Source of the DNA: an uncultured bacterium
GTDB taxonomy: Bacteria > Oederibacteriota > JAAXVQ01 > JAUVAV01
Length of the DNA stretch: 64,000 bases
NCBI GenBank assembly: GCA_963710755.1
Contig: CAVQBK010000004.1
Coordinates: forward strand, 1-64,000
Reading direction: 5' to 3'
A program made the translations under genes and the position numbers. The notes under the pieces were generated by a model, which was not told the DNA's origin, did not search any database, and saw only the letters and a program-made list of their open reading frames with translations. Positions within the stretch are counted from its first letter, which is position 1; the number at the start of each line of letters is the position of its first letter. Of the stretch, positions 7,439 through 56,964 are shown one piece after another.

Positions 7439-7523
7439 CTTCGTTATTATACCATATCATCAAACAAAGGCTCAAAAAAGTTGGTCGCGAGGGCCACTTA
7501 CAAAACGGGGTAATCTTTACCCA

Positions 7524-9334: not shown

Positions 9335-9426
9335 ATATATTTACGAGACGTTATGAAGCTTGCGTATGATGTCGGGAGAGGGCATTAAGAAATAACGAAT
9401 GCATTATGCTCGAAAAGGCAGAGGTT

Positions 9427-30400: not shown

Positions 30401-33400
30401 TTCTTCGCGTTGTCGACGGACTCCTTGACGGGTCACGGCAGTTATCGGGTGCTTTTCCAAGAGCCGGGAGCAAACGGCACTCCTGCGGTGGCGGAATTCA
30501 AAGCAGGACAATTGGCGCAGGTTGTTTCCAATGATGCCCATCAGAGCGTAAGAAGCAATTTCACCTACGATGATCAGGGCCAAGTGACGGGCCATGAGCT
30601 CACGCAGACCAGCCCGGTTAATAATGCGGTAGCAGTGGCCAAATATGGAAAAGGCGGCGCCATGTCCGGAGAAACCGTCTATGACCGCGACATGGGTGCC
30701 ATTTTGAAATTTGGAGCGGATAATAAATTCCTTGGCGTGGAAAAATCCGCAATTACGGACAAATCTTCCCCGCTTTATTCCGGTAATCGTTTCAAACTGG
30801 AATTGCTGTCTGACGGCAACGGTTTCAAAATGACCAACCAAAGCGGCATGGTTAAAGTCTATACCGCGGACGGTCAGCAAGTCCTGCAGAGCCCAAGCGG
30901 CAGCGGCCAAGCTCCTCAGGATGTGCAGAATTTCAATATCAAACAGCAGGAAACTTTGGTGGTGCCAAAGCTGGGAGAATTCAACAGCGTGACCGGTGCC
31001 ATTGAAAAGACGACCATGGAAATCAAGGAAGATCATTATGTCAATCGCCGGCAGGTGACCATGGCTTCCGATGATGGTTCGGTAAGCCAAGAGGTCATTG
31101 ACAGCACCCGGCTTGACGGCGTGGTGACGCAAAGAACGTTCGCCCTGGCTTCCGGGGATCAGCAGCAGGGCATGGGGTGGCAATTGACCCAGGTCAAAGG
31201 CCGGGCCATATTTTTGCAGGAAAAAGGATATGGGACCAAGGCTATGTTTCAGACCATGGCCGCCCAAAGTGACCATGTGGCTATGTTCAAGAATGCTGTC
31301 TTTAATCAAAATGGATTTTATACCTTAATGGCAACCGGCCAACCCGGCTCAGCCCAATATAATTTGATGGGTGAAGTTAATATTAAGGGCAAGGGAATAA
31401 TTAAGGTTGTAGCCGGCTTGAACGATAAAACCAAAGAAGTGCAAGTTCAGAATTTTAATGGATCTGAAGCTGCCATCGCGGCCTCTCATGTGGCGGACAA
31501 GGAATTGGCATTATTAAGCGACGGCCAGGCCCCGGTGGACGGCGTCAGTGAAGGCCAGGTTAAGTTTACCTCCAAAGATGGCACCCTGTTCATGTCCGTC
31601 AATCGCGGTTTTGACGGCGCCGTAAAAGGGTTTGAACTAAAAGGAAAGGATAGCTTTGGCGCTGAAGTCTCAGCCGCTTTAAACGATCAAGGCAATGGCT
31701 ATTTGGCCCATAGTTTTATCATTCCCGAGGGCGTTGACCATCCTGCTCTGAGAGCTGCAGCCGGCGGTCAGGCAATGGCCATCAGCGCAGGCAAAACCCT
31801 TGATATTCCGGGGGCATATGGCTCGGTTAACTTTGTGGCGGATCATAAAATCATGGTTCAAGTCAATCGTGATGAGCATGAGGTCATTACAGGCCATTCC
31901 TTACGCGGCACCGATGAATACGGGGGCACTGTAATCACGGCTTTAAATGGTAAAGGAACGGCTTTATTGGCCCAGAACATCATCGTGCCGCAAGGCTTGG
32001 ATCATCCGGCTCTGAAAGCGGTGGCCGGGAATCAAGCCGGCGCCATCAAGGCCGGCCAACCCATTGCGGTGGACGGCGCCTTCGGCAAAGTTAATTTTGT
32101 TGATAACGGCAACATCCTCCTTCAGGTCAATCATGATGGTAACGACAAGTTTACGGGCTACAGTATACGTGGTACCGACAAATACCATGGCATTGTTCTG
32201 GCCGGCGCAGATAAAGTAGGAACCCATCTGCTCGCCCAAAATATTATAGTGCCCGTAGGAGTGAACCATCCTGCTTTGACAGCATCTGCTGGAGATCAAG
32301 CCTCAGCTATCAGTCGGGGACAATTGGTCAGCGTTGTGGGCGCTAATGAAAGTGCTGTGGATTTTACCAATAAGGGCACCATCCTGATCCAGGTTAACCG
32401 CGACGATAACGGCAAGGTTAGTGGCTGGGGACTTAGGGGTGTTGATCAGTATGGGGATACCATTGTCACTGCAATAGGTAAAGGCGGCCATTTGGAAATG
32501 AAAAATGCTTTAATCCAGGTCGGCAGCCGTAATCCTTTATTGGCCCAAGCCGTTGGGAACAAGCAGGCCGGTGCTTTCCAAAAAGGCAACACAACAGTCA
32601 ATCAAATGGATGGTGTGGACGGCCCGGTGGCTTTTGCCAAAGATCACCAGATTGTTATTCAAACCAGCCGCGATGATCAGGGTATTAAATACAGTGTTTT
32701 AGCTCATTCGGTAAAAGATCCCAGCGTGATGCTTATTGCTGGCCTGGATGGCAACCAATCTCTGGGGTTATCAGCGGCTATTGGATCGCGCTCCAGTTTG
32801 ATAGGCGTAAATGCGGCGAAAACCATTCTGGACAAATTTGACGAAAAGAGCCATACCGCTGTTGTGGATGGGCAGAACCTTGATTGCCAGAATGATGAGG
32901 GCAACGTCGTGGTAAATATTGGCAAGAGCGATGGTGAAATCACTTACAGTGTCAGAACCACCTCTGCCCAAAATTCCAAGGTGACCTTCATCGTCGGTCA
33001 GAATGACAAAAAAGGTATTCAAATTACCGATGGTATGGGTTCCCAAAAAGATCTGGTGGCCCTCGGTGTTGCTGTGGCGGAATTCAAGCATGTGGATGCG
33101 GCCACGGGTACCACCGAAGCCGCCGTGATTGACGGGACTACGGGCAATAAACAGGTCTTTGAAGTGAGGGTGATTGGTGAGAACGAGCAGGTTCACGTAC
33201 GCTATGGCCGCACCAAGGACGGCGTATTGACCTACGGCTTGTTGGGAACATCCACCAAGTTTAAAGATGTCACGATCATGACCGGCATGGACAGCAAAGG
33301 CCGCAGCATGATGGTGCAAATGGCCAAAGGCAATCAAACAGATCTGGCGCTTTTGGGCATGCCCGTCAACGCACTGCTGACGGCCAATCAAAATGCACCG

Positions 33401-36400
33401 ATGGGCAAAGCTCGTCAAATTTTGGCTGATGCCAATCATGAGTATACCATTACGTTTGGTGAAGATGGGTCGCGTACCCTTAATGGTTATGCCCAAGTCT
33501 ACAGCCGGACGGACAAGGGTTATATGGGGCATCAAATCCAGGCTTTCGGAACCTTGGATAAAGACGGGAAATACACCTTTGGCGCCAAGGGAACAAACCG
33601 GGAATTGGAGGCCTTAGGGTTTGATCTCAAAGCGTTGGTGATGAAAAACCACAGTTTCGGCCGTGAAAATGCCTTGGTTTTTAACAGCCGGGTATTGACC
33701 ATGCTGGATACGGGCGATCACCAAATTCTTCAGGGCAGAACCATCAGCGGGGAAGAAGCTTCCTTGTCGTTGGACACGATTCATAACACTTTTTCCGCGT
33801 CCCGGACCATTACGCAAACCATCAACGGTCAGGAAGTGGCCATGCGGCTGGATAGAGATGAGCATGGCAGCATGGTAGTGACCATCAATGGACAACAGTT
33901 TGCCATGGCTGATGGATTAAAAATAAGTGCCGCTTCCGGGGACTATAACGGCATGATCCAGCTCGAAAGCGGCGACATGAAAAAATATATTACTTTACAA
34001 GGAGATGAAAAAACCGGGTTCATACAACGTTGGAATAACAAAATTTACGAGGCCGCCCATCAAATTGCCGCTGCTTGGAATGATAGAGTGAATAATGCAA
34101 ATTCAGGTCAATTTACATTTTTTGATAATTTAGCGGACAGTATGGCCTTTACCGGGGCTGCCTTCACAGCAGGAATAGCGATGCTGACCTCTCCCCTCAC
34201 AGGGGGATTAGATGCGGTTGCTGATAATTACTTGAAGGAACATGAGAATTGGGCAGCAGCAACAGCTTATGTGGCTTGTAAAACCGTTTCAGAACAAGCG
34301 CCCATCATTGGAGCCATACTCCTGGGACCGGCCGGTGGCACTGCTCTTATTGGTTCGGGAATATTGATGGAAATGAAGCCCGTCGTCAGCGGCGGCGGAC
34401 TTGGAGATTTTATTAAATCAGCCGGTTCATCGCTGCTGGTGACAGGTAATAATTTCTTTGTGCAACCGTTTATTATAGCCAAGGATGCCCTTGTCAATGT
34501 ATGGACCGGCCATGGCGAGGAAGCCTTGTCTTATTACGGACAAGCAGACCGTTATGTCCAACTGACCGGCGCTCTGGTACAAGTGGCGTTTGCTTTCACT
34601 ATGACCAGAAGTTATGGTAAAGCCTTGATTGATGGAACCACCATGCTGCGCTTCAGACTTTCTGAAGCGGGCGAAGCGTTTAAAAATACTGCAGGCAGCA
34701 GTGCTTTATTGGCAGCTGGTAAAGCCCTCTTCCAGGGTGTTTCTCCCGTCAATTTTTCATCAGAAGCGATGACGGCGGCCAAGGAAATTATGAAAAGCAA
34801 CCACACTTCATCTACGAAGTTTGAGGCCCTTAAGGAGTTAAGAGCCGGTAAAGATCCGGAAGCCGTGATAAAGGCAGTGGATGCCATTCAGAAGCCGCCA
34901 ACGATAATGAACAGAGTGGCCACTGCTTTGAAGCTTAATGAAGGCCCGGTGGCCAACGTCGTGGAAACGGCAGGGCGCACCGTGAGAACGGTTACCCGGG
35001 CGGTTGGCTCAAGCGTTGAAAAAGTGGTCAATGTCGTTAAGGCTGCCTTGGCACCTGTGGGTGATGGCATTGTCCATTTTGCCGCCAGCAGCAGGGACGT
35101 TGTCATCAATCAAGTCGTTAAAGTGGTTCAAGCAGTGGGAAAAGTCCAAGGTATAAGCGCGCTGGCCTCGGGCATTAAAACAGTAACTGCGGTAGTGAAT
35201 GGGTGGAGTGCGGCGCTCAGCAGCACTGCAACCCAGGTAAGCGTGGCCATTAAAGTATTCGCCATGAATGCGGCTTCCGGAATAAGCACAACCGCGGCTA
35301 ACTTAATGGCCAACTCCAACCCGGCGTTGAGCAAGATGTTATCCAATTTGTCCCAGCAATTGGAAAATGGCGCGGCAAAGATGCAGGAACAAAGCAAGCT
35401 GACCCTTGAATCCAAGACCGAAGGTCAAACCAGCCGAGCCGAAGCCGGCTTGGCGAAATCCTTTGAAGAGAAAATCACTGCAATTGAAAGCAATTTTGAA
35501 AAAGCTGGCACGATCTTTGAACTGTATGAACAAGGTGCAAAATTAAAATCCGCCATGAACGCTTATGGAAATTTCCTGGCCATGAGCGGTAATGCTGATC
35601 TGGTTCTAAATAAAGTACAGGCATTGACGGAGCAAGGCCACGGAGGCACAGCGCAAATTCTCGAAGGCGTGCTGCAAGTCCGCGCCGATATTGCCGGCAA
35701 AGTTATTGAAAGCATCAAAGGGACAGAAGCCGGCCATGCGGTTATTGCAGCCTTGGGCAAGAACATCGCTCAGAATGGGCCAATGGCGGCCGCCGTGCTG
35801 GCCAAGGAAGGCGTCTCGGAGGATATCGCCGGTGCCGTGGTCAAAGCAGCCTGTGCCAATCCCGGGAACACGGCGCAATTTGTAAAAGCCTTGACCCACA
35901 ATACGGACGCCATGGTTCAAGCCGTACGCGCAGCCGACCCGGTAAGCGCGGCCAGCATGGCTGATGCCGTATTTTCATCGGTTAAAGGCAGCACCAGAAC
36001 CACGGCGGCCATGAAACAGATGGCCAATGCCATGGCCAAGGATTCTGCGGTGGCCGGCAAGGTTGTTGATATTGCGGCCGCCGGTGACCGCGGGTTTATG
36101 CGGGAAAAAGTGATGGAGTTGTCCAAGGAAACCGCCCAATTGGAAAGCAATTTCCTCGGCGCCTTAGGCCAATCGCCCAAAGCCATGGCGGCGTTCATGC
36201 AGCAGGCAGCTCAAGGGCGTTACGGCCAGCACCGGGCGGAAGCCTTCACCAAGCAAGTGGCCAAAGATCCCCAAACCAGCCGTCAGATGGGCAAACTATT
36301 GGATTCCGCCAAAGCTAATGCGCAAGGCAGGTTGGTGAGTCCCCGCACGGCTGAGCTCTTCAGAAACACGATCGCCGATCAATTGGCCCGGAATCCGCGA

Positions 36401-39400
36401 AGCGAACCCATGCAAAACCTTTTAAAACAGTTTTCCGAATCAGGACAAAGGCAAATTTATAGGCAGTTGACCAATGATCTTGCCCGGGATCCGGTTAAAG
36501 CAGAGAATTTTAAAGACGCCGTGGTAAAAGATTTAAGAAAGGCCATGAAAGGCATAGGCGCGCCTAAGGTGGAACTTAATGCCAAAATAGAAAGACTGAC
36601 CGATCTGACACCCAAAGCCGAAGGAAATGTGAAAGCCGACGCTGCCCAAGGTCAGGGTCAAGGGAAAGGCCAGGCTGACGCCAATAACAGCACTGAACCC
36701 AACTTTGTCAACGAAGTGGTTGCAGCCTTAAAAACGGTTATTGACAACATGACAGGCAAAGCCAAAACCTTCAAGGAACCGGGTGCTTCAGGCTATAGGG
36801 CGCCATTCAGCCTGGCAGGAAGCAGAACGATGGAAGCTTTGCGAACCGATCCGCTGCAGGCTGCCTATGAATTCACCAAAACCATTTCCGGATTGCGGCT
36901 GGTGGAAGGCACGGCCAAGGCTATAGGCCAGCTTGGCAGTGGAACGGCCAAGCAATTCCGAGAAGCTTATTATAAAAATCAGCTCGAAGGATCGACGCAA
37001 GGATTACGTCAGGCTTTTGAAGCCAACAATAAAAGTTTGGAGACCCTGGATGCCCGCTTGGAGGCCATGGCTTTAAAGAATCTTCGTTCCCCGGGCGTTG
37101 ACAACCGTTTGTTTAACAAGCTTCAAAAAGGTATGGCCCAGCGGCAAGAGTTGAAAGCCCGGCAGGAACAGTTGTTAAAAGTGGCGGAGGGAAAAATTGA
37201 AGAAGCCACGTCAACCGTGGGGGAAATAGCAAGGTTAAAACTAAGCGCCCAGGAACTTCAAGCAGCCAATGAGGCAGGCCAGGCATATGATGCGGCGGTT
37301 AAAGCTCTGGAAAGCAAGGCTGAAAATTTTAAAACGATCGAACAAGCACAACGTCAAGTGGAAGAATCCGCGCTTGCTGAAAATGGCGGGCAGGCGCAAG
37401 CATTACCGGAAAAGGTGAAATCCCGGATCGATGCCTACCGGGTGTCTTTGGCGGAAGCCGCTTTTGAAGTGAATGCAGCCCGTGAGGAAGCACAAACCGA
37501 ATTAAATCAAATGTTGGCCAAGCCTGAGTTAGGCCAACGGCTGGGTGAACTAATGGTTCAAGAAAGCGTGGCCTCTTTGGGACGTCAAGCTGTTCAGGCC
37601 CAAGCACGGGTAAAAGGTAACTATGCCGAAGCTTACCGTGCGGCTGTGGCAAGGCCTGAAGAAGCGTTGACAAGACAAGCCAAACAAATTGGATCCCAGA
37701 TCGAAGGAGTAGAACGGCAAGCGCAACGCGCAGCCGGCCGGACCGAATTGAGAAGCCGGCAGCAGCAGGCGCGCCTTGAGAACCGGATGGCTTTGCAACG
37801 AGAATTGGCAGCCACCCAGGAACGTCTGGATACGCTTGACCCCACGAGCGAACAGGCTAAGGAACTCAAATCCCATCAAGACAGGCTGGAAACGCAGTTG
37901 GCGCGTCTTGATCGCGCCGACCAACGGGAGCTGCAAAGAGCCCGGCAAAAACAGCAATTGGAAAAGCGTGGGGCGCAATTGCAAACCCGGATCGCGAATA
38001 AGGATACGTCTCTTTCCCATCAAAGCCGACAGGCTACGCGGTTGATCGAGGTCAAAGCGCGGGAAGAGAAGAAGGCGCCTTTTGCCGAGGCGAGAAGCCG
38101 GCAGCAGCAGGCACGTCTTGAAAGCCGGCAGGCCCTGCAACATGAATTGGACGAAACCAAGAAACGTTTGACAATGCTTGACCCCTCCAGCCGCCAGGCC
38201 AGGGATCTCGAATCGCACCAATCCAGAATAGAAGCTCAGTTGGAGCGCCTTAATCGCGCCGACCAGCGGTATCTCCAAAGCGTCAAGCGAAACCAGCCAA
38301 TGGAAAACCGTTACAGAGAAGCTATTTATCAAGAATTGGCTGCACTGGAAGGTGCCAGGGCCCGGTTGCTGAAAAGAGCCGAGCAATTTGGCCAATTGAA
38401 GACCTTGGCCGAAACCTTGCTGTCCAAATCAGCGGCTGAATTGCAGAATCAGGATTTGTATGATTTCACGGCCAAGGTAATGGAACAACTTCCCATCAAG
38501 GATCAAACCGAATTGTTCCGGGCTGACAAGAACCATCATCTCGAAGTGATATCCCGCATGAGTTCCGAGGGCGCCCAGGCCTTGAGCCGGGCCTTGACCA
38601 AAACAGAAGCCCGGGCCTTGATGGATGCCATGCTGGAAATGGGCCGGGCTTACGACGAACAAGCCCAACAGCAATCAACGGCAATGGAACAAGGACGCTT
38701 GCGGGACATGGCCAAAACGTTTTACAGCAAAGCCGGCGATTTGTTGGCCGGCCGGCCGGCTAAGGAAATCATGCAATTAATCAATAACCCTGCCTTCAAA
38801 AAAGCCGCGGAATCAAGCAATGCCACTTCGGTTCAAGCGGCACTTATGTTGCATGGCAAACAACCTGTCTCAAGTAGAATGCTGCGCACCGTGGAATCCT
38901 TTGCCGATTACCTCCTGCAACAGCCGACCACCATGTCCTTTGATACGGTGTTGAAGAATTTTGGAGAATCCCGGTCCTGGTTCCAGCGGCTTCGCACTGA
39001 CAGCACGGAAGCCATGGTCAAAGCCTTGAAATTGGAGCCCCGAACCCTGGAGCAACAATTAACCGCACTGGATGAACTGGCTTCCGAACCGGCCAAAGCC
39101 TTTAAAAATCAACTTATGCAAGGCCGGACAGCGGAACACCAAGCCCAGTTGGAAAAAGCTGGGGCAGAAGTGGATAGGCTTAAAAGCGAGGTAGCCAGAA
39201 TTGAAAATGCCCGGCAAAAAGCGGTCGAAGAGAGAACCGCTTCGGAGGAAGCTTACCAGGAAACCTTGACTCAAACCAAGGCCGAACTGGCCCAGGCGGA
39301 AAGCAATTTGGAAGCCTTGAAGTCTAAAGAAGTGAAATTGGCTGACAGCAGCAGCGATCTGGCCAAGGCGCTCGAAGCTTTTAATGCCGAGCGGAGCAGC

Positions 39401-42400
39401 AGCGGTCAGGCCGTCTTAAGTGAAAAGGATATTTTACTTGAGAACCGGGATGAAGCGAGGGAAAACGCCATCAGTCAAGTCACCTCACAGGCTAGAATCA
39501 ACGCCCAAATGAAGCTGATGGACAACAAGGGCCGATTAAATGCTCTGCGTGCGCAATTAACGCAACTGGAAAAGGCCCAGGCATTTAAGCCCAGCCTGAG
39601 CAACCAGGTTCAGCAAAGCATTTTAAAATTTAGAATCAACAGGCTTAATCGCCAGGTTGTCAACGCTGAAAACCGCTTTACCAATTTTGCGGAATTGCCC
39701 CTGCCCAATAACTTGGAGGTACGCCGCTTAGCCAACACTTTTGCTCTGGAAACTAATCTCGATGTGGCATTGCAAATGGAAAAAATTCATAAACGTTTGC
39801 AAACTACGGCCGAAGCAGACCGGGCGGCCCTTCTGGAAAAAGAGGCAGCCATGACGCCTGAAGGTTTCAAAGAGTGTTGGCCCTATTATGAAAAAGTCTT
39901 GAATGAAGCAAGTAAAGATGCCATCAAAGACCTTAATGATGACAATCAAGCTTTTCGGCGTCAGCTCATGAGCGCTCTGCCCAAGGGAATCACCAATGGC
40001 CGGCAACTGTACGATGCCTTTAAAACCCTTCGCGAAGGTATAATCAAAAACGGGGACATTCAGGAAGGATCGATTCGTGATGCACGTCTCATACGCGTTT
40101 ACAGTGAAATTGCCTTTACCCGTGTAACTGGTTTCGATAACATCCGATTGGCCCAGAAAATAATGTTGAATTCCTTTTTCGGGCAACAAAACGTTGGGTT
40201 GGCTGCTGGCGGTGGTAAGACCAACATATTTATTATGATGCATATGCTTGGCATCATGAGTGGCGGAACCCTGCGCGGCGAAATTCTGGTTGATGATCCG
40301 GCAGCTATCGAAAAATACAAAACGGAAATGCAAAATACGGGGCTTAAACAGGGAGACTTGGCCGAAGCCTTGGGCTTGGAATTGGTCAATGGCAATGCCT
40401 TGCACAATGAAGGACGTTACCGGGAGCTGGAAGCAGCCTTGAACAGCTCCGACAAAATTGTGATCTTTGACCATATTACCCGTGCCCATTTAAGAAATGC
40501 CGAAGTCAGCAGCTCCAGTTTACGGCAGGCTTTGCAACAAAGCAACTATGTTGGGATTGATGAAGTTCATATGGCCGCGACTTCGCAAACGTCAGCGATT
40601 ATTGGCGGCGATATTGCCAAGCCTAGAGCGGCGTTGGTCCGGAAGGTAGATCAATTACTGAATGAACTGGGCTTCGAACAGTCAAATTTTAAAGCTCAAG
40701 TGGAAGCCGGGAAATTACCTCAATTGCGCAATGGATTTGAAGTGATCGACCACCGTGGTAAGGAACTGACCGATGATCAGATGGTGGAGTTCAACCGTAT
40801 GACTGGTAAAAAAATCATTTTGAGCGATGGGCAGATAAAACTTAATCTTGCAGCCCAGACGGCATTGAGAGGATTTACGGAGGGACAAATATCTTCTGTC
40901 CTGCGCACCCTTTATAGCAAGGTTGGAAAAGCCGGAGAATATATTTCCTATGCCACCCTAAACGGTAATATCTCGCCGGTCAATAGTCTGGGTAAGATTG
41001 AAGAATCCCAGATCAGCAATGATATTGCCCACCAAATTACAGCTGCGCGTATCAATGGATTGGATCCCTTTGATGCCGTGAGGGTAAATCACACCAAAAT
41101 GCAAACTTCCATGTCCGCCATGTATGCCGGCAATCACGGCGCTCACCTTGTTGGTGCATCCGGTACTATTGCCGGCATCGAAAGTTTGATGAAAAGTAAA
41201 ATAGGATCTTCTGCTCGCCACGTCAGTACTTCTATCTTTGATATCAAATCCATGATTGAAAACACGGCCATGGATGCGGATACCAAGGGGCGGCTTTTAA
41301 CGGACAGTCAAGCCGATCTTGCAATAGCTGATACAGCCCTATTTAAAGGGCTAAAACAAGGGTGGGACGGGTTTGTTGCAGAAGCCGATCCTGTCAAACA
41401 ACTGGAATTGGTCAAAGAATATGCTAAAAAAGCACAAAATCAGGGAATGGACGACACGATCATAAGCGTGATCGGTGCTGAAGGCGCGGGCTTCTATGTG
41501 CGCGCAGGTAAAGGTCATGAAATGCTGAAAAGTAAAGCTTTCCAGAACCTGTTGAAAGCAGCTGAAGTTCCGGCAGAAAATGCCCGCGAGGCTACCAGTA
41601 AAGTTCAAGGTATGGACTATATTGAAGTCAAAGATGGTATTCAAGCTGTGGTTCAAAGTCATAAAGCAACACCGGAAGCAGGTAAACAATATCTCAAAGG
41701 ACCGCAGATCACCATTGCCAATGAGCAAGCTTTTGTGGGTAAGAATTTCCAGAACAAATTTACCATGATCTTTAGAAATGTTCAGAACTATACAGCAGAT
41801 ATGATCACTCAAACCTTACTGCGTACCGGCCGGCCGGGCGGGGAAAGAGCAGATGGACGGTGGTCCACGTTGCGGTTTGCGGTGGTGAATGAAGCGGAAC
41901 TTGGCAATGTGGTGGAACAGGCCAAGAGACGTGGTAATGAAATCAAAAGTCTCCTTGACTTGAGCAAAACCAATGATGCCACCACTGCGAAAATTCTGGA
42001 TAAGACAGATCTAAACCTTGGTGAAATGCTTAAACTTGGAGCAGAATACCGTCAGTTAAAATTGGTTGGTGATGCCACCAGGTTCGCAGTTCAGGATACG
42101 TTCCGTGATTTGATATTGATCGATCCACTCAAAAAAGCATTAAGGGGAGTAACCGAAGGCAGCCAGGCCCACAAGATCCTTGATAACGAATTGTCCATAA
42201 CCTTAAACCGCAGTGCTGAAGGTGCTGATATCAAACTTCGGTTGCGTGGTAATCAATCTCCTGAAGAGCTTAACAACAAATATGTCAGTGATAATTTTAA
42301 CCGTAATTTGAGAGCTGCCAACGGAGTATGGTTTAAAATTTTAGGCAAATCAATTGTACAGGGTGCCTGGAAAACCAGTGGCAAGGCCGTGGAACAATTA

Positions 42401-45400
42401 TGGACCCAATGGCAGGCTTCGCGGGCAGTGAAAAATGGGCGGGTACCGATGCGCAACACCTCCACCAGTTTCGCCGAATATAAATCCCTGGCCGATCTTT
42501 ATCAAATAGGCAAGAACTTGATGGCCAAAGTATTATCAGAGGAAACGCAAGGCGCTGAAGCCGGTGCGCTGGGTCAACAAACCGTGACGATTGCCAACAA
42601 TGCCACCGTGACGTCCATCAGCAGCAAAGAAATGAAAACGTTAAAATCAACATGGGAACAAGCTCACAGTCAGGTCGAAAATGCATTTAAAGCGGCCAAT
42701 CCACTTGACTACTTGACTGGTAAACAAAATGGCGAAAATCCACTAGCAGCCATGTCGTTGAGTGCGGCCATGGGCATATTACATACGAACGATCAATTGG
42801 AAGCGCAAATGGCCATGGCGCCCAGCTTTAATGCGGCGTTCAATCAAATGAAAGATAATTTATATCAGCCCCTGCGGGCCCAAGCCTTGGGCGAAAAAGC
42901 TGGTATGGGAGAGCGGGTTAACTATAATCCGGCTTTGCTGCCTGAACCTTCTCAGGCGCTTATTAACCTGAATCAGTCCTCGCTGTTGTCCAGATTAGCC
43001 AATCTGCCTGGATTGGCGGGCGTGGTCACAAATTATAATAAACGGGATTTGGAAATCAATTATATTGGGGACCAAGCTACTGCAGTTTTAAATCAATATA
43101 ACAATCCTGAATGGGGTAAAGTCCATCAAGAAGAAGTTAAAGCCTACCAAACCCAATACGGTGACAACTGGCAGGCCATTGTCCTGGCCAACCAATTCGG
43201 ACCGGACATCACTTTGGTGCAGCAATACCAGCAAACCACTAATCCCTTGCGGCGGTTGTGGCTGGGCATGCAAATGCCGGCCCAGGCCAATAAGCTTTAT
43301 CAAGAACTCATGTCCGATATTGCCAAAGTCGCCGCCAAGCTCAGTGTTTTCAAGAACAACCCCAACGCGACCTTGACCTATCAGAACCGGACCATGAATG
43401 AGCAGCAAGCCCGGGCTTATATGGTGGAGCGCATGGATCAGGCTGCTTCGCTGTCAGGGCGCTATCAATTGAAAAATACCGGATTGATTAATAACTACCA
43501 GTCTGACGTGAGCACTTCTCCCCAGAAGGTGGTTCAAGCAGCGCTGAAGGAAAAGGGCAATGTGCAAAGCTTTGGCAGCAATACGCTTCAAGGTATCGCT
43601 CAACTGGCCAGCACCGTGAAGCTCACCAGCATTCCCTGGATCAAGGCTCATCCTATCCTGGCTGGCACTCTGGTGGGCAGCACGATTTTGCTAGCCGGCT
43701 TGAACCTGGCAGGGCTCACCCTGCTAACCATGACATGGGGATCATTTTTTACGGGTGGGATCACCGGTGCAATGAACAGTTTTGCAAAAGCAGAACCGGT
43801 CTCGAGAAATGCCAAGGGACCTATGGCGATAATGCAAAAATACACGTCCGGGAAAAAAGGAATGCTAGCGAAATTAATAACACCGGCGATTTTTGTAATT
43901 TCCGGTAATTATGTTGGCCTATTGGGCATTATCTTCAGTACTACGCTTAGGTTGGTCTATGATATCGGTAAGGGCAAGATTACGGCCACCCCTATTAAAG
44001 AAGACGATGTGGTGGTCAATCTGAATCCGGCTGGTGAGAACAACCAGGAAGGCCTGGAATCTCAGCAAGTGCTAAATAGCACTGCTAATATGGCCAGTGG
44101 TAAAGCTAAGACCATTATGCAGGCCTGGCAGGAAGAAGTGGCCGGCCGGGAAAACAGCGGCAAAGCCGTGGAGGCCTTGCGCGGTATCCTGCAAAACACC
44201 TTTGGCGTGGCCTTGACGGTCGGCAACAAAGCCAAGGATCTTGCCTACATGCGCCTCATAGCCGCCTTGATGGATCTGATACCGGCCATTGCGGTGACCG
44301 GCCAGGAAGCCATTCAGCCCAAGGTCTATCTGACCAAGGCTGTTAAAACCAACGGCAACCGCAAGGCCGGCTTGTGGTTCATTGCCTTTGCCGCCAAGAA
44401 ACCGGGATCGGGGGCGGAAGCCTCAGAAGTGGATATGGAAATTCCCGAATCGGAAGTGGCCATGCTCAACCGCAGCCTGGGGGACATGATGATCCGCCAG
44501 GCCTTGATCGCCGCGGTGGAAGTGCTTTTCCAGGACGGGGAGGTGGGCAGCCTGGAAACCGCGCTTATCAACTCCGATCCTTCTTTGGGTTATGCGGGCA
44601 ATGCCAACCGGGTCATTGAATTCTTGAGAAGTTACATCATGGACGGCGCCAATCTTAAACGCACTATTGACGAAATTCGCGCGGATGAAGCCGCGGGCCA
44701 CAGCCTGCGTTTCCGTGATCAACAGTTGCTTCAGGCCTTTGATATGGTGAGCGCCAAATTTGGCGGGGCCACATTCAGTGCCAATGACCTGCGCGATCTC
44801 AACCAAGCCAAGGCCGAGTTGGAAAACGAGGCGTTCGCCCAGATGGCCGTTCAGGCGCAGGCCATTGATGCGGCTAAAGCCCAAGGGAAAGATATCCAGG
44901 ACCTGTGGGGTACCTTTTATGCCCAGTTTGGCATGAGCTATGGCGACTATGAAACCATGAAAAAAGAGCCGGTGCCCCAAAAAGTACTGGAGTTCTTCTT
45001 CAATAAAGATAATCTGGCCCAAGACCTGCCTATGGCCAATGTCAAGCGGGCTGCCATGCGGTTGATTGGTTTCAGCGCGATAGGCGCCATCTTGGGAGGC
45101 GTGGTCGTGGGCTTGTTCCTCGGCACCGGCGTGGCCGTGGTGGCCGGCGCGGTTCTGGTGACCGCCGGCTTGGCAGGATTGTTTGAAGGGCTTATGGCTA
45201 TGGCCACAGCCAGTAAAATCGCTTTCCGTCTCAATCCCTCAGCCGCCGTTATGGAACAATTGGGCAATACCAGCTTTGACTCCCGCACTGTAGAAATGGA
45301 AGCCGGCCTGATGGAGGTGGAGAAAGCGCTGCCACAGGACCGGACGGCAGCCGAGGCCAAGTTCCAGCAATTGTACGGCATCAGCACCAGGGATTACGGC

Positions 45401-45832
45401 AAAGTCAATCTGATCAACCTCATGAAGAACCCGCTTTTTGTTAATGCAGTAGAGCACCTGCGGCCTGAAGGGCAGACTTTCATGATCTCTGAAAATAATC
45501 GCGATAGTGCAGTGCAGGAATTGCTGGCCTTCCTGCTCACCGCAGTGCGCAGCGATGCCAGGAAAGAATACAAGATCGCCGTGATTCAGGATGTGGCCAA
45601 GATTATGGCCTTCATGCAACTAGACATCAACGTGAGCGTGGCCAAATTCAAACCCGGGCTGGAAGTCACCTTAACCCCGGAAGTGGAACGGCTGGTCAAT
45701 CCACGGGTGGCCACACCCAAGATGGAACGGATGATTAACGGCCTCAGTGAATTCGGGATTAATATTAAGGGCTTGTTCGTGCCCTTCAACCAGCGTCATC
45801 AACGGCTCAAAGGTGCCGGTAGCGCGGCTTAA
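21455..45832 (+). CDS. Giant (8125 aa) secreted/membrane protein with low-complexity Q/A/P regions, hydrophobic helical hairpins, beta-rich repeats, coiled coils and an embedded SecA-like SF2 ATPase domain
   Basis: Uninterrupted 24.4-kb ORF with an N-terminal signal-like segment. AAGGGKT (40202-40222), IDEVH (40556-40570), GASGT (41153-41167), QTLLRTGRPG (41810-41839). Followed by an intrinsic terminator. The exact start (21455-21530) is uncertain. Confidence 0.9.
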   Translation: MRMMLIYKQKQAQAMSPWERKLWGGMKRYFKQVVSFILLVTFAFTMTGMDAIFANAFDNPNYYRQERNDDLKAPLNPLQSNQPDAFISYNPVQSSATDTGGQLRDTTVNVIKAEYGDLVDTATLKTAAEKAGGSVSVDAIVQQIAGDQAQSTAAPAGQQQPQAMPATQDQNNQASTSVSQTQNPETMADAVTLGQGPVTLAIDLNGAQPADANTGTQQETASLPSAMPGEKTSTAETTEKTDSPSAKTQVASSTENPKGTEQPVQKDQTQPKVAEQPVTPEEGSQPKQVAADQGSKKDQQQMVEDTQQPKDQENSAAQQQQQAKQQKQEPSMVETMANKVMTMLGMAPNEPKEAETTTADQLNQAQQGQTAVQAQAEEKPVQAAANTTDEDKSSQDVAAASQDKQAQTMVDQATTKDAQQQVAKDEQTKPGEQTVSGQDNVKKEGETQVTEKTKTKEAAVSTDDVLAMLGVQESDGKKKEAAASAETLKVDEGVLAAVAEGTEKTDKQEVDVAALVDKPAEKESAQEVVSKPKEGAAVEEKKDKESQVTAAAVKDGKEPTVTVDKKQLETDNNVPLVKNAPQTGVESNVAMVGPEISVADIDKEVKAAAEEADKVRATVEIPEMPSDLDFGNVSPALVNTSTHTDFDGAIAEVDYSYSFGHTDSTALYTALSTLMENGPPTSSRTGFMGNLMDFGNRSSSSYDDSFGINFNNLFSSGNNSDPNANNGQYDAILNPGSSNLWSGSSFRLSIASSLNGADSDSGTPQYFTAEESAKLNDAYNAVKGYQAEAQAMGRPLSLTEAIKTYMYTMINPNATIPIVSTVNNFQSSNWTGERTSNWDSVANEYANRYEHPNPPEDDKKGSGGGGCASFLASPLGKIFMFAVMVVTTIMTVGTSSPVLLGIMLTLEAIQTFMPNLPTWLSFGLSILTVAIGGWIKGLEQAAASVEQTVSVFVEKAEGLMNTLSNNIVKRAIIKAVVKAMVGKIVMMLMPDGMNPILSALVNMTMGAFADVLADAVANGDFTNLGKAFIEKMKNLFGFGAGADGLSSMSTILLSDGVITLAAAAADWIVKEAMGEDSTMGSIIGGFASALVSGLGSYAKTMSTLPANTTLTSAEHTALVLDRIVAPIIDTVISRVITVFLGQAASLNPDQAMNNLQIQFVAGQVGQIGNVLLPDVSISQNGQVTVTGFADKWSAATQSGGSSSSPNYNTNNTSTTQTPFNQQVVAAAANGTQPGQGPNGTAAGTVGKPSNTGMQTPPTSPEGLRGQGMTDGNNQAVNNNDSAANKPDPIAAGQIKQPEQAPMPAKDDSAAKPEAGAPIGQSKGNESITNPQVSVAENAGAKGMNSSPQAPPTQQEKPKQETSEQNKPEAKPEQLQAPSQTNVPEQAPQENAKPKQAQAQAPQPERQDNAQSVPQQDNKNQQRQENAPQAQQHQETEKPRQEVKVDIADLPGAQRRDGEVPTAKNGDQVKGQSGNNSNGDNSGQGENTNPTMNEAMSQIKQIDNGQLPAIYAAAANSQPQSMLSGASSDQVNKSSEKVQNLVNDLKSANAPVSDNYKVDVTATTNNYGAEVLTVKMTGMNTATQQMETRVAMSTMVNGEAVTTTLTQSTSSENATTATVSVDGQELHKTEINNNQAGVKVSDVGLSAQKPQGIADAKPISSEGRRSGDQPQPKAVPNPLAAATGAPTDLKPGQGKVAGQGQASGHGGSQGSTAAKAKGDQANGNAAAGSSQGGGTSAAATEGQAQGAGAANPFAGQDKGSANGSQPAQGPRPQEGEKITKEVDLGNGQKTSLSYNFEPNGKTGTTTKEVFGNGSDWNKYRVTYSNTDGSIVDVQQRVSISWTQAGYKSLGSDQVVVSDSAGNVRSIYKQDSQGNLTKTHDTYTTSFNGQRFGALMETSLVEGLDEKAQQAVILSEAAKPQNLMNNGAVAGNLRKQGIMPGSAQYTQAVKSLSQQMASAAYGQANALYTQSQSNSSMSMQDKQQAAAVMAKTSINLMTVAPQQVNMTTMADAAIASNNVDLMVSAANTQLEAFDRAGAAKTMTAAYQKAESLNMTGSQRASLAMETVDALKAAGQTKGGAQGTYQQALAEVNTYIKSDLMAKGTTPQTMALAARYNNATGRQAYNTNSMANDGMATQLKQAFSNGQNGTKAVEGLGQVTKNGDTYQIQADMGQGGSVTMSVTMGKDKATVNQMTITDQNKGVEVYGASKSGLKLEQTTVLVRSQNVDGQTVDAQRVMVVAGKRVGTGFIRDDQGRPQAISVNMKTGEITGIMKAAGQDQPAALVAMNRQNALVFAENGKPMALDGSEVKIFQNAQNSDVVSSLVQAGMSSSQAKQLINALNLSGQTVYQINQTLFIGDAESGTYRTAGVNEFDKGNSQVYIAQYKDGQLSQAFLADGKIFDFVNGDPAHFALTQKSADGKATHTAYYENGELQGSALYLNEFKDQKTGQTLSLTYDSQGQLTSDSLKALQSQGASLGYRFSQVGGGFEITSNADSKVSYRFSNSGYRIFESKDTGKSSTGGMQESFGFDVKQKVTISMAKYNDANGVQVRYDNVTRRQVTISIGANGSVTQVAVDRTVTGTAIQRTTTVAQAGNIGKIMLQTVETGQFNEAGKLVQGHSKLTVDNRPKPPVRHTQQGGKRVLQVKQLPHKASSEKTTKTAAPKNPDEANKSKAAAAKAEKALAKPVTQEASSVVKSQLEGSNTVSDKTINAALAATPGNTKIELTAAAASVLSAGTTEPKSEVKAASAVPSISEGSTESAKVQSAPQTYAEQMPTITGIAGMEDVKPASSPLDKTIDNVLAMTSGTQKGLASPAAPVVAAGMLGVALAAQAAQKLVNTQMEKATLNTAVGDITPDSPINIDAQKLLEPSQLEKVLSEQAPAARVSVAGYRPQAVVLSNGKESMTLPLNEALATAPAAPLAPELPQVMIQGGQLVDQYGKPLQKVDSTVLSNHLQESNEPLNNNFKSSVAAMENGATIFTTDHKTFFALSTDSLTGHGSYRVLFQEPGANGTPAVAEFKAGQLAQVVSNDAHQSVRSNFTYDDQGQVTGHELTQTSPVNNAVAVAKYGKGGAMSGETVYDRDMGAILKFGADNKFLGVEKSAITDKSSPLYSGNRFKLELLSDGNGFKMTNQSGMVKVYTADGQQVLQSPSGSGQAPQDVQNFNIKQQETLVVPKLGEFNSVTGAIEKTTMEIKEDHYVNRRQVTMASDDGSVSQEVIDSTRLDGVVTQRTFALASGDQQQGMGWQLTQVKGRAIFLQEKGYGTKAMFQTMAAQSDHVAMFKNAVFNQNGFYTLMATGQPGSAQYNLMGEVNIKGKGIIKVVAGLNDKTKEVQVQNFNGSEAAIAASHVADKELALLSDGQAPVDGVSEGQVKFTSKDGTLFMSVNRGFDGAVKGFELKGKDSFGAEVSAALNDQGNGYLAHSFIIPEGVDHPALRAAAGGQAMAISAGKTLDIPGAYGSVNFVADHKIMVQVNRDEHEVITGHSLRGTDEYGGTVITALNGKGTALLAQNIIVPQGLDHPALKAVAGNQAGAIKAGQPIAVDGAFGKVNFVDNGNILLQVNHDGNDKFTGYSIRGTDKYHGIVLAGADKVGTHLLAQNIIVPVGVNHPALTASAGDQASAISRGQLVSVVGANESAVDFTNKGTILIQVNRDDNGKVSGWGLRGVDQYGDTIVTAIGKGGHLEMKNALIQVGSRNPLLAQAVGNKQAGAFQKGNTTVNQMDGVDGPVAFAKDHQIVIQTSRDDQGIKYSVLAHSVKDPSVMLIAGLDGNQSLGLSAAIGSRSSLIGVNAAKTILDKFDEKSHTAVVDGQNLDCQNDEGNVVVNIGKSDGEITYSVRTTSAQNSKVTFIVGQNDKKGIQITDGMGSQKDLVALGVAVAEFKHVDAATGTTEAAVIDGTTGNKQVFEVRVIGENEQVHVRYGRTKDGVLTYGLLGTSTKFKDVTIMTGMDSKGRSMMVQMAKGNQTDLALLGMPVNALLTANQNAPMGKARQILADANHEYTITFGEDGSRTLNGYAQVYSRTDKGYMGHQIQAFGTLDKDGKYTFGAKGTNRELEALGFDLKALVMKNHSFGRENALVFNSRVLTMLDTGDHQILQGRTISGEEASLSLDTIHNTFSASRTITQTINGQEVAMRLDRDEHGSMVVTINGQQFAMADGLKISAASGDYNGMIQLESGDMKKYITLQGDEKTGFIQRWNNKIYEAAHQIAAAWNDRVNNANSGQFTFFDNLADSMAFTGAAFTAGIAMLTSPLTGGLDAVADNYLKEHENWAAATAYVACKTVSEQAPIIGAILLGPAGGTALIGSGILMEMKPVVSGGGLGDFIKSAGSSLLVTGNNFFVQPFIIAKDALVNVWTGHGEEALSYYGQADRYVQLTGALVQVAFAFTMTRSYGKALIDGTTMLRFRLSEAGEAFKNTAGSSALLAAGKALFQGVSPVNFSSEAMTAAKEIMKSNHTSSTKFEALKELRAGKDPEAVIKAVDAIQKPPTIMNRVATALKLNEGPVANVVETAGRTVRTVTRAVGSSVEKVVNVVKAALAPVGDGIVHFAASSRDVVINQVVKVVQAVGKVQGISALASGIKTVTAVVNGWSAALSSTATQVSVAIKVFAMNAASGISTTAANLMANSNPALSKMLSNLSQQLENGAAKMQEQSKLTLESKTEGQTSRAEAGLAKSFEEKITAIESNFEKAGTIFELYEQGAKLKSAMNAYGNFLAMSGNADLVLNKVQALTEQGHGGTAQILEGVLQVRADIAGKVIESIKGTEAGHAVIAALGKNIAQNGPMAAAVLAKEGVSEDIAGAVVKAACANPGNTAQFVKALTHNTDAMVQAVRAADPVSAASMADAVFSSVKGSTRTTAAMKQMANAMAKDSAVAGKVVDIAAAGDRGFMREKVMELSKETAQLESNFLGALGQSPKAMAAFMQQAAQGRYGQHRAEAFTKQVAKDPQTSRQMGKLLDSAKANAQGRLVSPRTAELFRNTIADQLARNPRSEPMQNLLKQFSESGQRQIYRQLTNDLARDPVKAENFKDAVVKDLRKAMKGIGAPKVELNAKIERLTDLTPKAEGNVKADAAQGQGQGKGQADANNSTEPNFVNEVVAALKTVIDNMTGKAKTFKEPGASGYRAPFSLAGSRTMEALRTDPLQAAYEFTKTISGLRLVEGTAKAIGQLGSGTAKQFREAYYKNQLEGSTQGLRQAFEANNKSLETLDARLEAMALKNLRSPGVDNRLFNKLQKGMAQRQELKARQEQLLKVAEGKIEEATSTVGEIARLKLSAQELQAANEAGQAYDAAVKALESKAENFKTIEQAQRQVEESALAENGGQAQALPEKVKSRIDAYRVSLAEAAFEVNAAREEAQTELNQMLAKPELGQRLGELMVQESVASLGRQAVQAQARVKGNYAEAYRAAVARPEEALTRQAKQIGSQIEGVERQAQRAAGRTELRSRQQQARLENRMALQRELAATQERLDTLDPTSEQAKELKSHQDRLETQLARLDRADQRELQRARQKQQLEKRGAQLQTRIANKDTSLSHQSRQATRLIEVKAREEKKAPFAEARSRQQQARLESRQALQHELDETKKRLTMLDPSSRQARDLESHQSRIEAQLERLNRADQRYLQSVKRNQPMENRYREAIYQELAALEGARARLLKRAEQFGQLKTLAETLLSKSAAELQNQDLYDFTAKVMEQLPIKDQTELFRADKNHHLEVISRMSSEGAQALSRALTKTEARALMDAMLEMGRAYDEQAQQQSTAMEQGRLRDMAKTFYSKAGDLLAGRPAKEIMQLINNPAFKKAAESSNATSVQAALMLHGKQPVSSRMLRTVESFADYLLQQPTTMSFDTVLKNFGESRSWFQRLRTDSTEAMVKALKLEPRTLEQQLTALDELASEPAKAFKNQLMQGRTAEHQAQLEKAGAEVDRLKSEVARIENARQKAVEERTASEEAYQETLTQTKAELAQAESNLEALKSKEVKLADSSSDLAKALEAFNAERSSSGQAVLSEKDILLENRDEARENAISQVTSQARINAQMKLMDNKGRLNALRAQLTQLEKAQAFKPSLSNQVQQSILKFRINRLNRQVVNAENRFTNFAELPLPNNLEVRRLANTFALETNLDVALQMEKIHKRLQTTAEADRAALLEKEAAMTPEGFKECWPYYEKVLNEASKDAIKDLNDDNQAFRRQLMSALPKGITNGRQLYDAFKTLREGIIKNGDIQEGSIRDARLIRVYSEIAFTRVTGFDNIRLAQKIMLNSFFGQQNVGLAAGGGKTNIFIMMHMLGIMSGGTLRGEILVDDPAAIEKYKTEMQNTGLKQGDLAEALGLELVNGNALHNEGRYRELEAALNSSDKIVIFDHITRAHLRNAEVSSSSLRQALQQSNYVGIDEVHMAATSQTSAIIGGDIAKPRAALVRKVDQLLNELGFEQSNFKAQVEAGKLPQLRNGFEVIDHRGKELTDDQMVEFNRMTGKKIILSDGQIKLNLAAQTALRGFTEGQISSVLRTLYSKVGKAGEYISYATLNGNISPVNSLGKIEESQISNDIAHQITAARINGLDPFDAVRVNHTKMQTSMSAMYAGNHGAHLVGASGTIAGIESLMKSKIGSSARHVSTSIFDIKSMIENTAMDADTKGRLLTDSQADLAIADTALFKGLKQGWDGFVAEADPVKQLELVKEYAKKAQNQGMDDTIISVIGAEGAGFYVRAGKGHEMLKSKAFQNLLKAAEVPAENAREATSKVQGMDYIEVKDGIQAVVQSHKATPEAGKQYLKGPQITIANEQAFVGKNFQNKFTMIFRNVQNYTADMITQTLLRTGRPGGERADGRWSTLRFAVVNEAELGNVVEQAKRRGNEIKSLLDLSKTNDATTAKILDKTDLNLGEMLKLGAEYRQLKLVGDATRFAVQDTFRDLILIDPLKKALRGVTEGSQAHKILDNELSITLNRSAEGADIKLRLRGNQSPEELNNKYVSDNFNRNLRAANGVWFKILGKSIVQGAWKTSGKAVEQLWTQWQASRAVKNGRVPMRNTSTSFAEYKSLADLYQIGKNLMAKVLSEETQGAEAGALGQQTVTIANNATVTSISSKEMKTLKSTWEQAHSQVENAFKAANPLDYLTGKQNGENPLAAMSLSAAMGILHTNDQLEAQMAMAPSFNAAFNQMKDNLYQPLRAQALGEKAGMGERVNYNPALLPEPSQALINLNQSSLLSRLANLPGLAGVVTNYNKRDLEINYIGDQATAVLNQYNNPEWGKVHQEEVKAYQTQYGDNWQAIVLANQFGPDITLVQQYQQTTNPLRRLWLGMQMPAQANKLYQELMSDIAKVAAKLSVFKNNPNATLTYQNRTMNEQQARAYMVERMDQAASLSGRYQLKNTGLINNYQSDVSTSPQKVVQAALKEKGNVQSFGSNTLQGIAQLASTVKLTSIPWIKAHPILAGTLVGSTILLAGLNLAGLTLLTMTWGSFFTGGITGAMNSFAKAEPVSRNAKGPMAIMQKYTSGKKGMLAKLITPAIFVISGNYVGLLGIIFSTTLRLVYDIGKGKITATPIKEDDVVVNLNPAGENNQEGLESQQVLNSTANMASGKAKTIMQAWQEEVAGRENSGKAVEALRGILQNTFGVALTVGNKAKDLAYMRLIAALMDLIPAIAVTGQEAIQPKVYLTKAVKTNGNRKAGLWFIAFAAKKPGSGAEASEVDMEIPESEVAMLNRSLGDMMIRQALIAAVEVLFQDGEVGSLETALINSDPSLGYAGNANRVIEFLRSYIMDGANLKRTIDEIRADEAAGHSLRFRDQQLLQAFDMVSAKFGGATFSANDLRDLNQAKAELENEAFAQMAVQAQAIDAAKAQGKDIQDLWGTFYAQFGMSYGDYETMKKEPVPQKVLEFFFNKDNLAQDLPMANVKRAAMRLIGFSAIGAILGGVVVGLFLGTGVAVVAGAVLVTAGLAGLFEGLMAMATASKIAFRLNPSAAVMEQLGNTSFDSRTVEMEAGLMEVEKALPQDRTAAEAKFQQLYGISTRDYGKVNLINLMKNPLFVNAVEHLRPEGQTFMISENNRDSAVQELLAFLLTAVRSDARKEYKIAVIQDVAKIMAFMQLDINVSVAKFKPGLEVTLTPEVERLVNPRVATPKMERMINGLSEFGINIKGLFVPFNQRHQRLKGAGSAA
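31718..32790 (+). repeat. Tandem 88-aa (264-nt) repeats within the giant protein
   Basis: HPAL/HPAL/HPAL/NPLL anchors at 31739, 32003, 32267 and 32531 (exact 264-nt spacing). Each unit carries AGxQA.AI..G, V.F...G.I..QVNRD and GxSLRGxDxYG. Confidence 0.85.
37750..38269 (+). repeat. Internal direct duplication (~178 nt, 342-nt offset) in the coiled-coil region of the giant protein
   Basis: GAGAAGCCGGCAGCAGCAGGC...CTTGACCCC...ATCGCGCCGACCA at 37750-37927 and 38092-38269. Protein RSRQQQARLE..LDP.S...SHQ.R.E.QL.RL.RADQR occurs twice. Confidence 0.85.
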
Positions 45833-56753: not shown

Positions 56754-56964
56754 ACGGTTTAAGTTTATTATATTCAATGTTTATTAAGGATTACGTTTGA
56801 AGCGATTTTCGAGACATTGAATTTTTAAAATCGGATTTTTTATTATGAAACAACACAGCTGGAAACATTCCTAAAAAACGTTTTAAAATGAAATGGCCAT
56901 TGGAAAATGGCCAAATTTAAAGCTATATTTTATAGACTATAGTTTGTGTTATGGAGGCTCAATC

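Follow-up and report, generated by a model that had tools for sequence, protein, structure and literature searches.

The window analysed here (64,000 nucleotides, positions 1 to 64,000 of contig CAVQBK010000004.1, assembly GCA_963710755.1) comes from an uncultured bacterium of the lineage Oederibacteriota and carries a giant open reading frame (ORF; 21455..45832), which starts with GTG, has ATG codons at codons 3-4 and encodes a protein of 8,125 amino acids (aa). This ORF and all its parts described below lie on the forward strand. In the last quarter of the protein there is an ATPase module, conserved over approximately aa 6190-7000 (window ~40022-42440), which we read as a very divergent member of the SecA-like motors that are built into giant multi-transmembrane bacterial proteins. 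It is quite likely that the module is SecA-like in its architecture, that is, a first lobe split by an insertion of ~190 aa, a second lobe that holds motifs V and VI, and then a long region of helices. This is the narrower claim; to the proposal that the module is a motor of SecA type which works on polypeptide at the cytoplasmic face we give a probability of roughly 0.6.

Motifs and predicted fold of the module

The initial annotation of the window had flagged positions 40100-42350 as a SecA-like ATPase embedded some 6200 aa into the giant protein. Its placement is correct, as the motifs begin at aa 6230 of the 8,125-aa ORF, and the seven motif strings that it quoted occur once each in the ORF, in the order found in SecA, between aa 6230 and 6795 (window 40142-41839). 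The flagged span covers the core, but the conserved module is somewhat larger: the hidden Markov model (HMM) of the family spans aa 6189-7001 of the giant protein, and the stretch modelled with AlphaFold2 comprises aa 6190-7010 (40022..42484).

The N-terminal part of the first RecA-like lobe (40139..40621) holds the conserved Q (aa 6234) of IRLAQK (aa 6230-6235; 40142-40159), the Walker A motif LAAGGGKT (aa 6249-6256; 40199-40222), whose lysine is K6255, the string DHITRAHLRN (40469-40498) and the Walker B motif IDEVH (aa 6368-6372; 40556-40570), which is followed by SQTSAIIGG. Between motif II and motif III, where SecA has its preprotein cross-linking domain (PPXD), lies an alpha/beta insertion of ~190 aa (40583..41149); it contains a segment of 37 aa, YATLNG...AARING (aa 6499-6535; 40949-41059), and its conserved end is marked by PV..G....QISNDI..QI and VRV.T.MQTS.S. 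After motif III (LVGASGT, aa 6565-6571; 41147-41167) comes the second RecA-like lobe (41204..41887), with a variable middle, motif V (ITIANEQAFVGKNF, aa 6752-6765; 41708-41749), motif VI (QTLLRTGRPG, aa 6786-6795; 41810-41839) and W.TLRF (41861-41887). Lobe 2 is followed by a helical region (41891..42433), for which the AlphaFold2 model predicts a 43-residue helix (model 666-708, which includes EYRQLKLVGDATRFAVQDTFRD) as well as long helices at model 747-780 and 783-804. This region may be the counterpart of the helical scaffold of SecA; a wing-like domain after lobe 2 and a C-terminal tail were not recognised in it.

The AlphaFold2 model was built from a 20-row alignment with no templates (mean pLDDT 79.2, pTM 0.66). 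It runs through an alpha/beta lobe, the insertion (~200-372), the same lobe again at motif III, a second alpha/beta lobe and the helices, and the module accordingly presents two RecA-like lobes with Walker A, Walker B and motifs III, V and VI. When this model was compared by Foldseek with 350,542 PDB chains, the first 25 listed rows (ranks 1-27) were all SecA or SecA2 (E 4.2e-12 to 1.6e-6; 11-15% identity over ~830-970 alignment columns). The first match of another kind is DinG, at rank 28 (E 2.1e-6), with Brr2, MDA5, Hel308 and CasDinG next at ~1e-5. As the initial annotation had expected, the nearest solved fold is SecA/SecA2, and neither DEAH nor restriction helicases are the best matches. 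The global TM-scores to SecA are modest (0.29-0.41), which is expected of a flexible multi-domain protein or of a distant relative. In addition, the truncated SecA-N68 (5k9t, E 3.1e-9, 707 columns) scores worse than the full-length SecA chains, which suggests that the predicted helical tail contributes to the SecA fold match.

The insertion was also folded alone (window 40583-41149; pLDDT 81.4, pTM 0.76). Foldseek ranks 1-3 for this model are SecA or SecA2, with E 0.051-0.19 and no matches at E<=0.001; ten SecA-family entries stand among the matches listed, the best of them having a TMq of 0.45 and an rmsd of 5.2 A, to 5k9t. This is suggestive, and not proof, of a predicted fold that resembles the preprotein domain of SecA.

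Comparison with SecA and with helicases

The main profile compared with hhalign contains 51 rows of the module family. Against 19 SecA proteins of the phylum it reaches 90.0% (E 1.7e-6, score 63.2, 377 columns; query 13-477 to SecA 55-464), and against SecA plus the giant SecA-like domains of relatives 96.3% (E 1.8e-9, score 89.1; query 14-488 to SecA 56-472). The alignment with SecA is collinear: GGGKT pairs with GEGKT, RAHLRN with FDYLRDN, DEVH..SQTSAIIGG with DEVDSILIDEARTPLIISG, SNDIAHQ with SDGLHQ, QTSMS...GASGT with QTLAS...GMTGT and RTGRPG with RSGRQG. Similarly, motif III (LVGASGT) is matched by LSGMTGT of the genome's own SecA and W.TLRF by the RF or CF that follows SecA motif VI. The pairing of motif V with SecA offered by the initial annotation is not reproduced by hhalign. 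Two control families of superfamily 2 (SF2), of ~990 and ~1,160 aa, reach 31.8% (E 4.9e-4, 142 columns) and 2.9% (E 0.016, 36 columns), respectively. The neighbours of the module in the ESM Atlas provide weak independent support for SecA: the highest-scoring cluster (0.93) shares 193/256 features, and the ten best clusters that bear a family all have SecA_DEAD, many of them together with SecA_PP_bind.

Several results weigh against a SecA-type motor. The initial annotation had looked to the Pfam models SecA_DEAD, SecA_PP_bind and Helicase_C for confirmation, and none of these was detected in the module or in 20 family members. Indeed, no family at all (DEAD included) matches the module at E<=10, and no SecA model (PF07517, PF01043, PF21090 or PF07516) exceeds its cut-off in the module or in the whole giant protein, for which a scan in two halves returned no family over the cut-off and DUF3991 alone below it. 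When the 20 family members were scanned singly, SecA_DEAD was found in none, while DEAD gave a weak sub-threshold match in two (best E 0.007); in 12 further homologues (six plus six) the Pfam scan found nothing relevant. Against PDB sequences, neither phmmer with the module nor an HMM of the family alignment A2 produced a match at E<=10. A genome-wide search with PF07517 did not touch the window and matched only the canonical SecA and, weakly, one other helicase-like gene. With a family profile of 20 rows, hhalign gives SecA only 7%, and a DEAD-box control from the same genomes scores as high as SecA does with the main profile (89.6%, E 1.9e-6, score 60.8), over 146 columns. For lobe 1 alone, the DEAD-box control is clearly ahead (95.4% versus 30-50% for SecA). 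Taken by itself, the insertion, with the segment resembling the preprotein-binding domain on which the initial annotation had mainly based its case for SecA, reaches significance against SecA neither with hhalign (P 0.33-0.45) nor with Foldseek (best E 0.051). Extended by motif III, it gives hhalign P 0.009-0.018 against SecA and 0.28-0.54 against the controls. Likewise, the helical tail alone matches nothing (P 0.16), its long helix being placed on the SecA scaffold helix by hhalign at low stringency, and the spacing of ~30 aa from motif V to motif VI is generic for SF2. Searches of the family HMM (hmmsearch) and of the module (phmmer) against SecA gave marginal results with E-values from a tiny database and were not used.

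These observations are what would be expected if the module were a generic SF2 (DEAD/DinG-like) nucleic-acid helicase or translocase, or an ATP switch, with an unrelated insertion and with a likeness to SecA that is due to the two-lobe core and to size. In the same direction, DinG, Brr2, MDA5 and Hel308 match the model with E 2e-6 to 4e-5, and its top hits in a viral structure library are DUF3638 proteins from giant viruses (E 9.5e-8) and various helicases. We nevertheless consider a generic SF2 protein unlikely. The SecA and SecA2 chains that head the fold search surpass every helicase in E-value, by as much as six orders of magnitude, and the alignment with SecA extends over 377-616 columns that include the insertion and motif III, as opposed to 146 for the DEAD-box control. 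The large insertion is found exactly at the position of the SecA PPXD, and its three best Foldseek matches are SecA/SecA2. All the ESM Atlas neighbours belong to SecA_DEAD clusters. DEAD and Helicase_C over the cut-off in a compact core were not found, ~190 aa lying between motifs II and III, and the Pfam scan of the 8,125 aa found no nucleic-acid-binding domain. In summary, the sequence evidence establishes an SF2 DEAD-like motor for which SecA is favoured by the extent and collinearity of the alignment rather than by its score. The view of the initial annotation that the module points to SecA rather than to a nucleic-acid helicase is supported by the fold search, the ESM Atlas and the collinear profile alignment, but not by lobe 1, where the DEAD-box control equals or beats SecA. 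No sequence test places the module in SecA; its architecture is what is SecA-like.

Conservation and distribution of the family

Homologues of the module were searched with HMMER in a full scan of 1,835,955,588 cluster representatives, which yielded 37 sequences at E<=1e-3, 27 at <=1e-10 and 9 at <=1e-30. Twenty of the 37 have at least 2,000 aa (up to 7,195), eight have 1,071-1,856 aa and nine fewer than 500 aa, and no normal SecA of ~900 aa is among them. Three matches (P0002, P0003 and P0006) are identical to loci of relatives; P0003 (6,942 aa) is contained in an open frame of 6,954 aa, and the two shorter ones (1,789 and 1,451 aa) are fragments of open frames of 7,247 and 4,268 aa. Two blocks of homology, at query ~65-460 and ~600-810, flank a variable middle, as is expected for two ATPase lobes.

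Conservation was counted over 43 distinct family rows, with the rows that cover each residue as the denominator. In Walker A, the K is kept in 36/37 and the T in 34/37; in Walker B, the D in 38/40, the E in 38/39 and the H of DExH in 36/39. The T of motif III is conserved in 33/35, and in motif VI the Q is found in 28/29, the first R in 28/28 and the second R in 27/28. For motif V, the figures are 26/28 for N and 29/29 for G, so that the doubt about activity expressed in the initial annotation, which had considered this motif divergent, is not borne out at the level of the family. The existence of 37 homologues with near-invariant motif residues indicates that the series of motifs is not due to chance. 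As pairwise identity within the family is only 23-55%, the retention of the catalytic residues argues for a working ATPase, and the module is, as judged from its sequence, a conserved and probably catalytically competent SF2 ATPase.

The source genome, which is 98% complete with 3.44 Mb in 13 contigs, encodes a canonical SecA on another contig (C1:204807-205961, in an 880-aa frame, E 1.9e-133) and one SecY gene (C2:178909-179958), and the module is consequently an extra to the housekeeping system. Among the 53 open frames of at least 1,500 aa, which make up 12.7% of the bases of the genome, the family HMM finds one copy of the module. Of the sequencing runs, none was listed as RNA, and one DNA run labelled as soil metagenome contained a third of the sampled words. 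Within the phylum, the module occurs in 6/99 species genomes (the source genome counted), all of them from the order of the source; by family, it is present in 3/10 genomes of f1, 2/4 of f2 and 0/84 of all others. All the copies lie in open frames of 1,773-8,056 aa, and one genome (G003) has three.

Among order-level relatives, the part of the giant protein that is kept (blastp) is a C-terminal block, aa 5576-8125 (38180..45829), which comprises a helical region, the ATPase module, a transmembrane cluster and a C-terminal domain. The relatives share approximately this block only, the N-terminal ~5,500 aa showing at most weak repeat similarity. A conserved motor and C-terminal membrane cluster with a freely varying N-terminal part is what would be expected of a machine with a variable payload. 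The beta-rich N-terminal part contains a unit of 88 aa that is repeated three to four times in tandem (aa ~3400-3700; window ~31700-32600), with an HPAL motif at aa 3429, 3517 and 3605 and a degenerate copy near 3693.

Sister genomes also have a second family of giant proteins with SecA_DEAD, which in this case exceeds the Pfam cut-off (E 1.6e-16 to 3.1e-10). Its open frames have 13,678 aa in G002 (domain at C1:65118-65840), 11,265 aa in G014 (C6:245537-246259), 9,337 aa in G003 (C19:25684-26409), 3,157 aa in G006 (C62:4944-5672), 2,007 aa in G010 (C13:2182-2493) and 1,773 aa in G004 (C297:3295-4029). By sequence, this family is clearly SecA-derived (hhalign to SecA 99.8%, E 1.3e-28, SecA 6-817). 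Both giant SecA-like families are present in G003 and G014, and the HMM of the second found no member among the 53 longest frames (at least 1,500 aa) of the source genome.

Placement in the membrane and proposed role

Hydrophobic segments were called by a simple hydropathy scan and not by a trained predictor. The scan marks clusters at aa 36-54, a signal-anchor-like segment at the N-terminus, and at aa 865-938, 2807-2831, 4226-4305, 7398-7498, 7595-7617 and 7865-7919, so that the host of the module, with 8,125 aa and several predicted hydrophobic segments, is a giant, multi-transmembrane protein. The nearest pair upstream of the module is aa 4226-4244 and 4281-4305 (34130..34369); downstream, aa 7398-7429 and 7474-7498 (43646..43948) are followed by aa 7595-7617 and aa 7865-7919 (window 45047-45211). 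The module thus lies inside a stretch of 3,092 aa (aa 4306-7397) without a hydrophobic segment. The initial annotation had described it as lying between hydrophobic segments, which is true in a loose sense, although the upstream ones are ~1,900 aa away and the downstream ones ~400 aa. In this stretch lysine and arginine (K+R) amount to 12.7%, compared with 8-9% in the N-terminal stretches, and this fits, if weakly, a cytoplasmic location of the motor.

We propose that the 3,092-aa stretch would reside in the cytoplasm of the producer, tethered by the hydrophobic segments on its flanks; a motor that needs ATP should face this compartment. There, by analogy with SecA, the module would grip and move unfolded polypeptide at the expense of ATP. 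Its substrates might be segments of newly synthesised giant protein or of the very large envelope proteins that neighbour it, and the route could be either SecYEG or a path alongside the giant protein's own C-terminal membrane segments. The cytoplasmic location, the polypeptide substrate and the role in export are all points that we infer. Two features sit less easily with this proposal. The first is the timing of synthesis: the first 6,000 residues precede the motor, which therefore cannot assist its own N-terminus in cis while the chain is being made, and a motor at residue 6200 comes too late to take part, in cis and during translation, in the export of the 4,200 aa at its N-terminal end. 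It is more plausible that it would act in trans, either on newly made copies or on further very large envelope proteins. The second is that the loop after aa 7429 is rich in K and R, so that, if aa 7400-7429 were a single span, the positive-inside rule would leave the motor side outside. The topology, as judged from hydropathy and flanking charges, is hence ambiguous.

Action in trans may be taken further. It is conceivable, if rather doubtful, that the C-terminal ~2,550 aa form a self-contained, membrane-tethered engine which would work in trans as an exporter, an inserter or an ATP-driven winch for the many very large envelope proteins of the genome, independently of housekeeping SecA or loosely coupled to it. 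This idea is based on the share of the genome (12.7%) that the 53 long frames take up and on two further observations. On the one hand, an N-terminal domain of ~450 aa, which lies behind a signal-anchor and belongs to no Pfam family, is common to 26/53 of the long frames, two of them directly downstream of the giant gene (49365-56753 and 56893-63483; 28% identical over 450 aa). On the other hand, the second SecA-like family and the same N-terminal domain are joined in one frame in two sister genomes (G003:C19 and G010:C13). Five relatives have 9-18 matches each to this domain, in frames of up to 12,061 aa; among the matches listed, none is near the second-family copy at G014:C6.

A different interpretation, raised as an alternative by the initial annotation, is that the motor is delivered: the C-terminal block would be inserted in the membrane of a target cell, or injected across it, so that the ATPase acts in the cytoplasm of the target. 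The K/R-rich loop fits a motor outside the membrane of the producer, and the literature on giant proteins of related phyla discusses them as predation or attachment devices (10.1101/2023.11.21.568195; PMC12057145). Delivery is, in our view, quite improbable, as neither Pfam nor an ESM Atlas search of its C-terminal membrane region, aa 7350-8125 (best score 0.77, unnamed clusters and no lead), revealed a domain for translocation or toxin delivery in the giant protein, and as the K+R content around the motor (12.7% versus 8-9%) is more like that of a cytoplasmic protein. Furthermore, we know of no precedent for a folded region of 3,000 aa being moved across two envelopes. Finally, that the module is a degenerate structural remnant which has lost ATP hydrolysis, as its extreme divergence from all curated families might suggest, is very hard to reconcile with residues of Walker A, Walker B and motifs III, V and VI that are kept in 26/28 to 29/29 of the rows covering them, in a family with only 23-55% identity between members.

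Neighbouring genes

Upstream, an ORF of 391 aa (20283-21458) shares 4 bases with the GTG start of the giant gene, an overlap that suggests translational coupling. No Pfam family matches this ORF, and no counterpart of it was found in five relatives. Downstream, an ORF of 206 aa (46027-46647) with a sub-threshold match to RHS repeats (E 0.0011) separates the giant gene from an ORF of 845 aa (46644-49181). A homologue of the latter is directly upstream of a giant gene with the ~450-aa N-terminal domain in G009 (C1:226745-278904) and in G003 (C3:153293-158632), the synteny being partial. In G014 (C2:300301-309034), the start of a giant gene with this domain lies ~3.5 kb downstream of the homologous giant's module, a distance compatible with the two genes being directly adjacent. 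The two large ORFs that follow in the window are not paralogous to the giant protein (blastp) and lack Walker A and Walker B in a motif scan.

At the other end of the window there is a group of three ORFs (3260-6073, 7765-8880 and 9406-11265). Two have C-terminal sorting domains of type IX secretion, the second over the Pfam cut-off, and the third is an OmpA-family protein with weak PorV/PorP-like matches; from these features, the organism probably has a type IX secretion system. No Pfam domain of type I secretion system (T1SS) kind was found in the window ORFs scanned.

Comparison with known systems

The closest parallel is provided by the giant genes of Omnitrophota. According to West-Roberts et al. 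(2023, bioRxiv 10.1101/2023.11.21.568195), the full-length genes specify many transmembrane regions, and the majority have a divergent SecA DEAD domain together with a SecA preprotein-binding domain; these SecA-like domains have neither scaffold nor wing and exist beside a normal SecA. The authors propose that these domains take part in exporting either the giant protein itself or accessory proteins, and similar domains are described in giant actinobacterial proteins of some Actinobacteriota. The protein studied here shares with those giants a length of thousands of residues, several transmembrane regions, a very divergent motor near C-terminal membrane anchors, a SecA of normal length and a SecY elsewhere in the genome, and the same proposed role. 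It differs in its lineage (Omnitrophota and Actinobacteriota in that study) and in that the domains reported there were detected by Pfam, whereas the module is recognised only by fold, language-model and profile-profile comparison. Additionally, those domains are without scaffold and wing, while in our model lobe 2 is followed by the predicted helix of 43 residues and two long ones. We found no paper on SecA-like modules in giant proteins of Firestonebacteria, and the word 'Firestone' is absent from the main text of that preprint. A 2026 preprint on Omnitrophota reports an architecture cluster of 20 proteins with PF07517.

Stand-alone secondary SecA_DEAD proteins beside T1SS-like genes have been described in Planctomycetes, Verrucomicrobia and others by Kamneva et al. 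(2015, PMC4452313). Like the module, each is a divergent ATPase of SecA type that diderm bacteria have in addition to their housekeeping SecA, and a specialised role in export is suspected. By contrast, they are separate proteins in a conserved T1SS-like neighbourhood, and the module is within a giant protein.

Canonical SecA and SecA2 (PDB 1tf5, 6itc, 5eul, 4uaq and 6sxh) are the nearest solved folds; they have the same motif order as the module, and in both motifs II and III are separated by a large insertion. The identity in the structural alignment is, however, 11-15%, there is no match at the HMM level, and the spacing from motif V to motif VI is shorter in the module. Canonical SecA is, moreover, a soluble protein of ~900 aa, while the module is embedded in a membrane protein of 8,125 aa. 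SecA2 systems are extra SecA copies dedicated to very large adhesins. DEAD-box RNA helicases (PF00270) have in common with the module the Walker A/B core of lobe 1 (95.4%), but not the ~190-aa insertion or the long helical tail; their alignment covers only 130-146 columns, and they stand far below SecA in the fold search. As for the second, Pfam-detectable SecA_DEAD family of the sister genomes, it is found in the same order and family of bacteria and likewise in giant open frames, although it is a separate sequence family (hhalign 26.5%, E 7e-4 against the family of the window).

To our knowledge, the one clue that recurs to how bacteria make, export and anchor proteins of 5,000 to 85,000 residues is the presence of SecA-like motors within them. 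As motor families such as this one are wholly missed by standard annotation, their true frequency in giant proteins is underestimated. The presence of two unrelated-looking SecA-like families in the giant proteins of one small group of genomes is of interest in this respect, and the module, at ~810 aa and with clear catalytic residues, is a compact target for further work. That SecA-like motors are built into giant multi-transmembrane bacterial proteins is already known. What the present analysis adds is a sequence family that all curated models have missed, the lineage in which it is found, the finding that sister genomes contain a second giant SecA-like family alongside it and, possibly, given the predicted structure, a retained scaffold helix.

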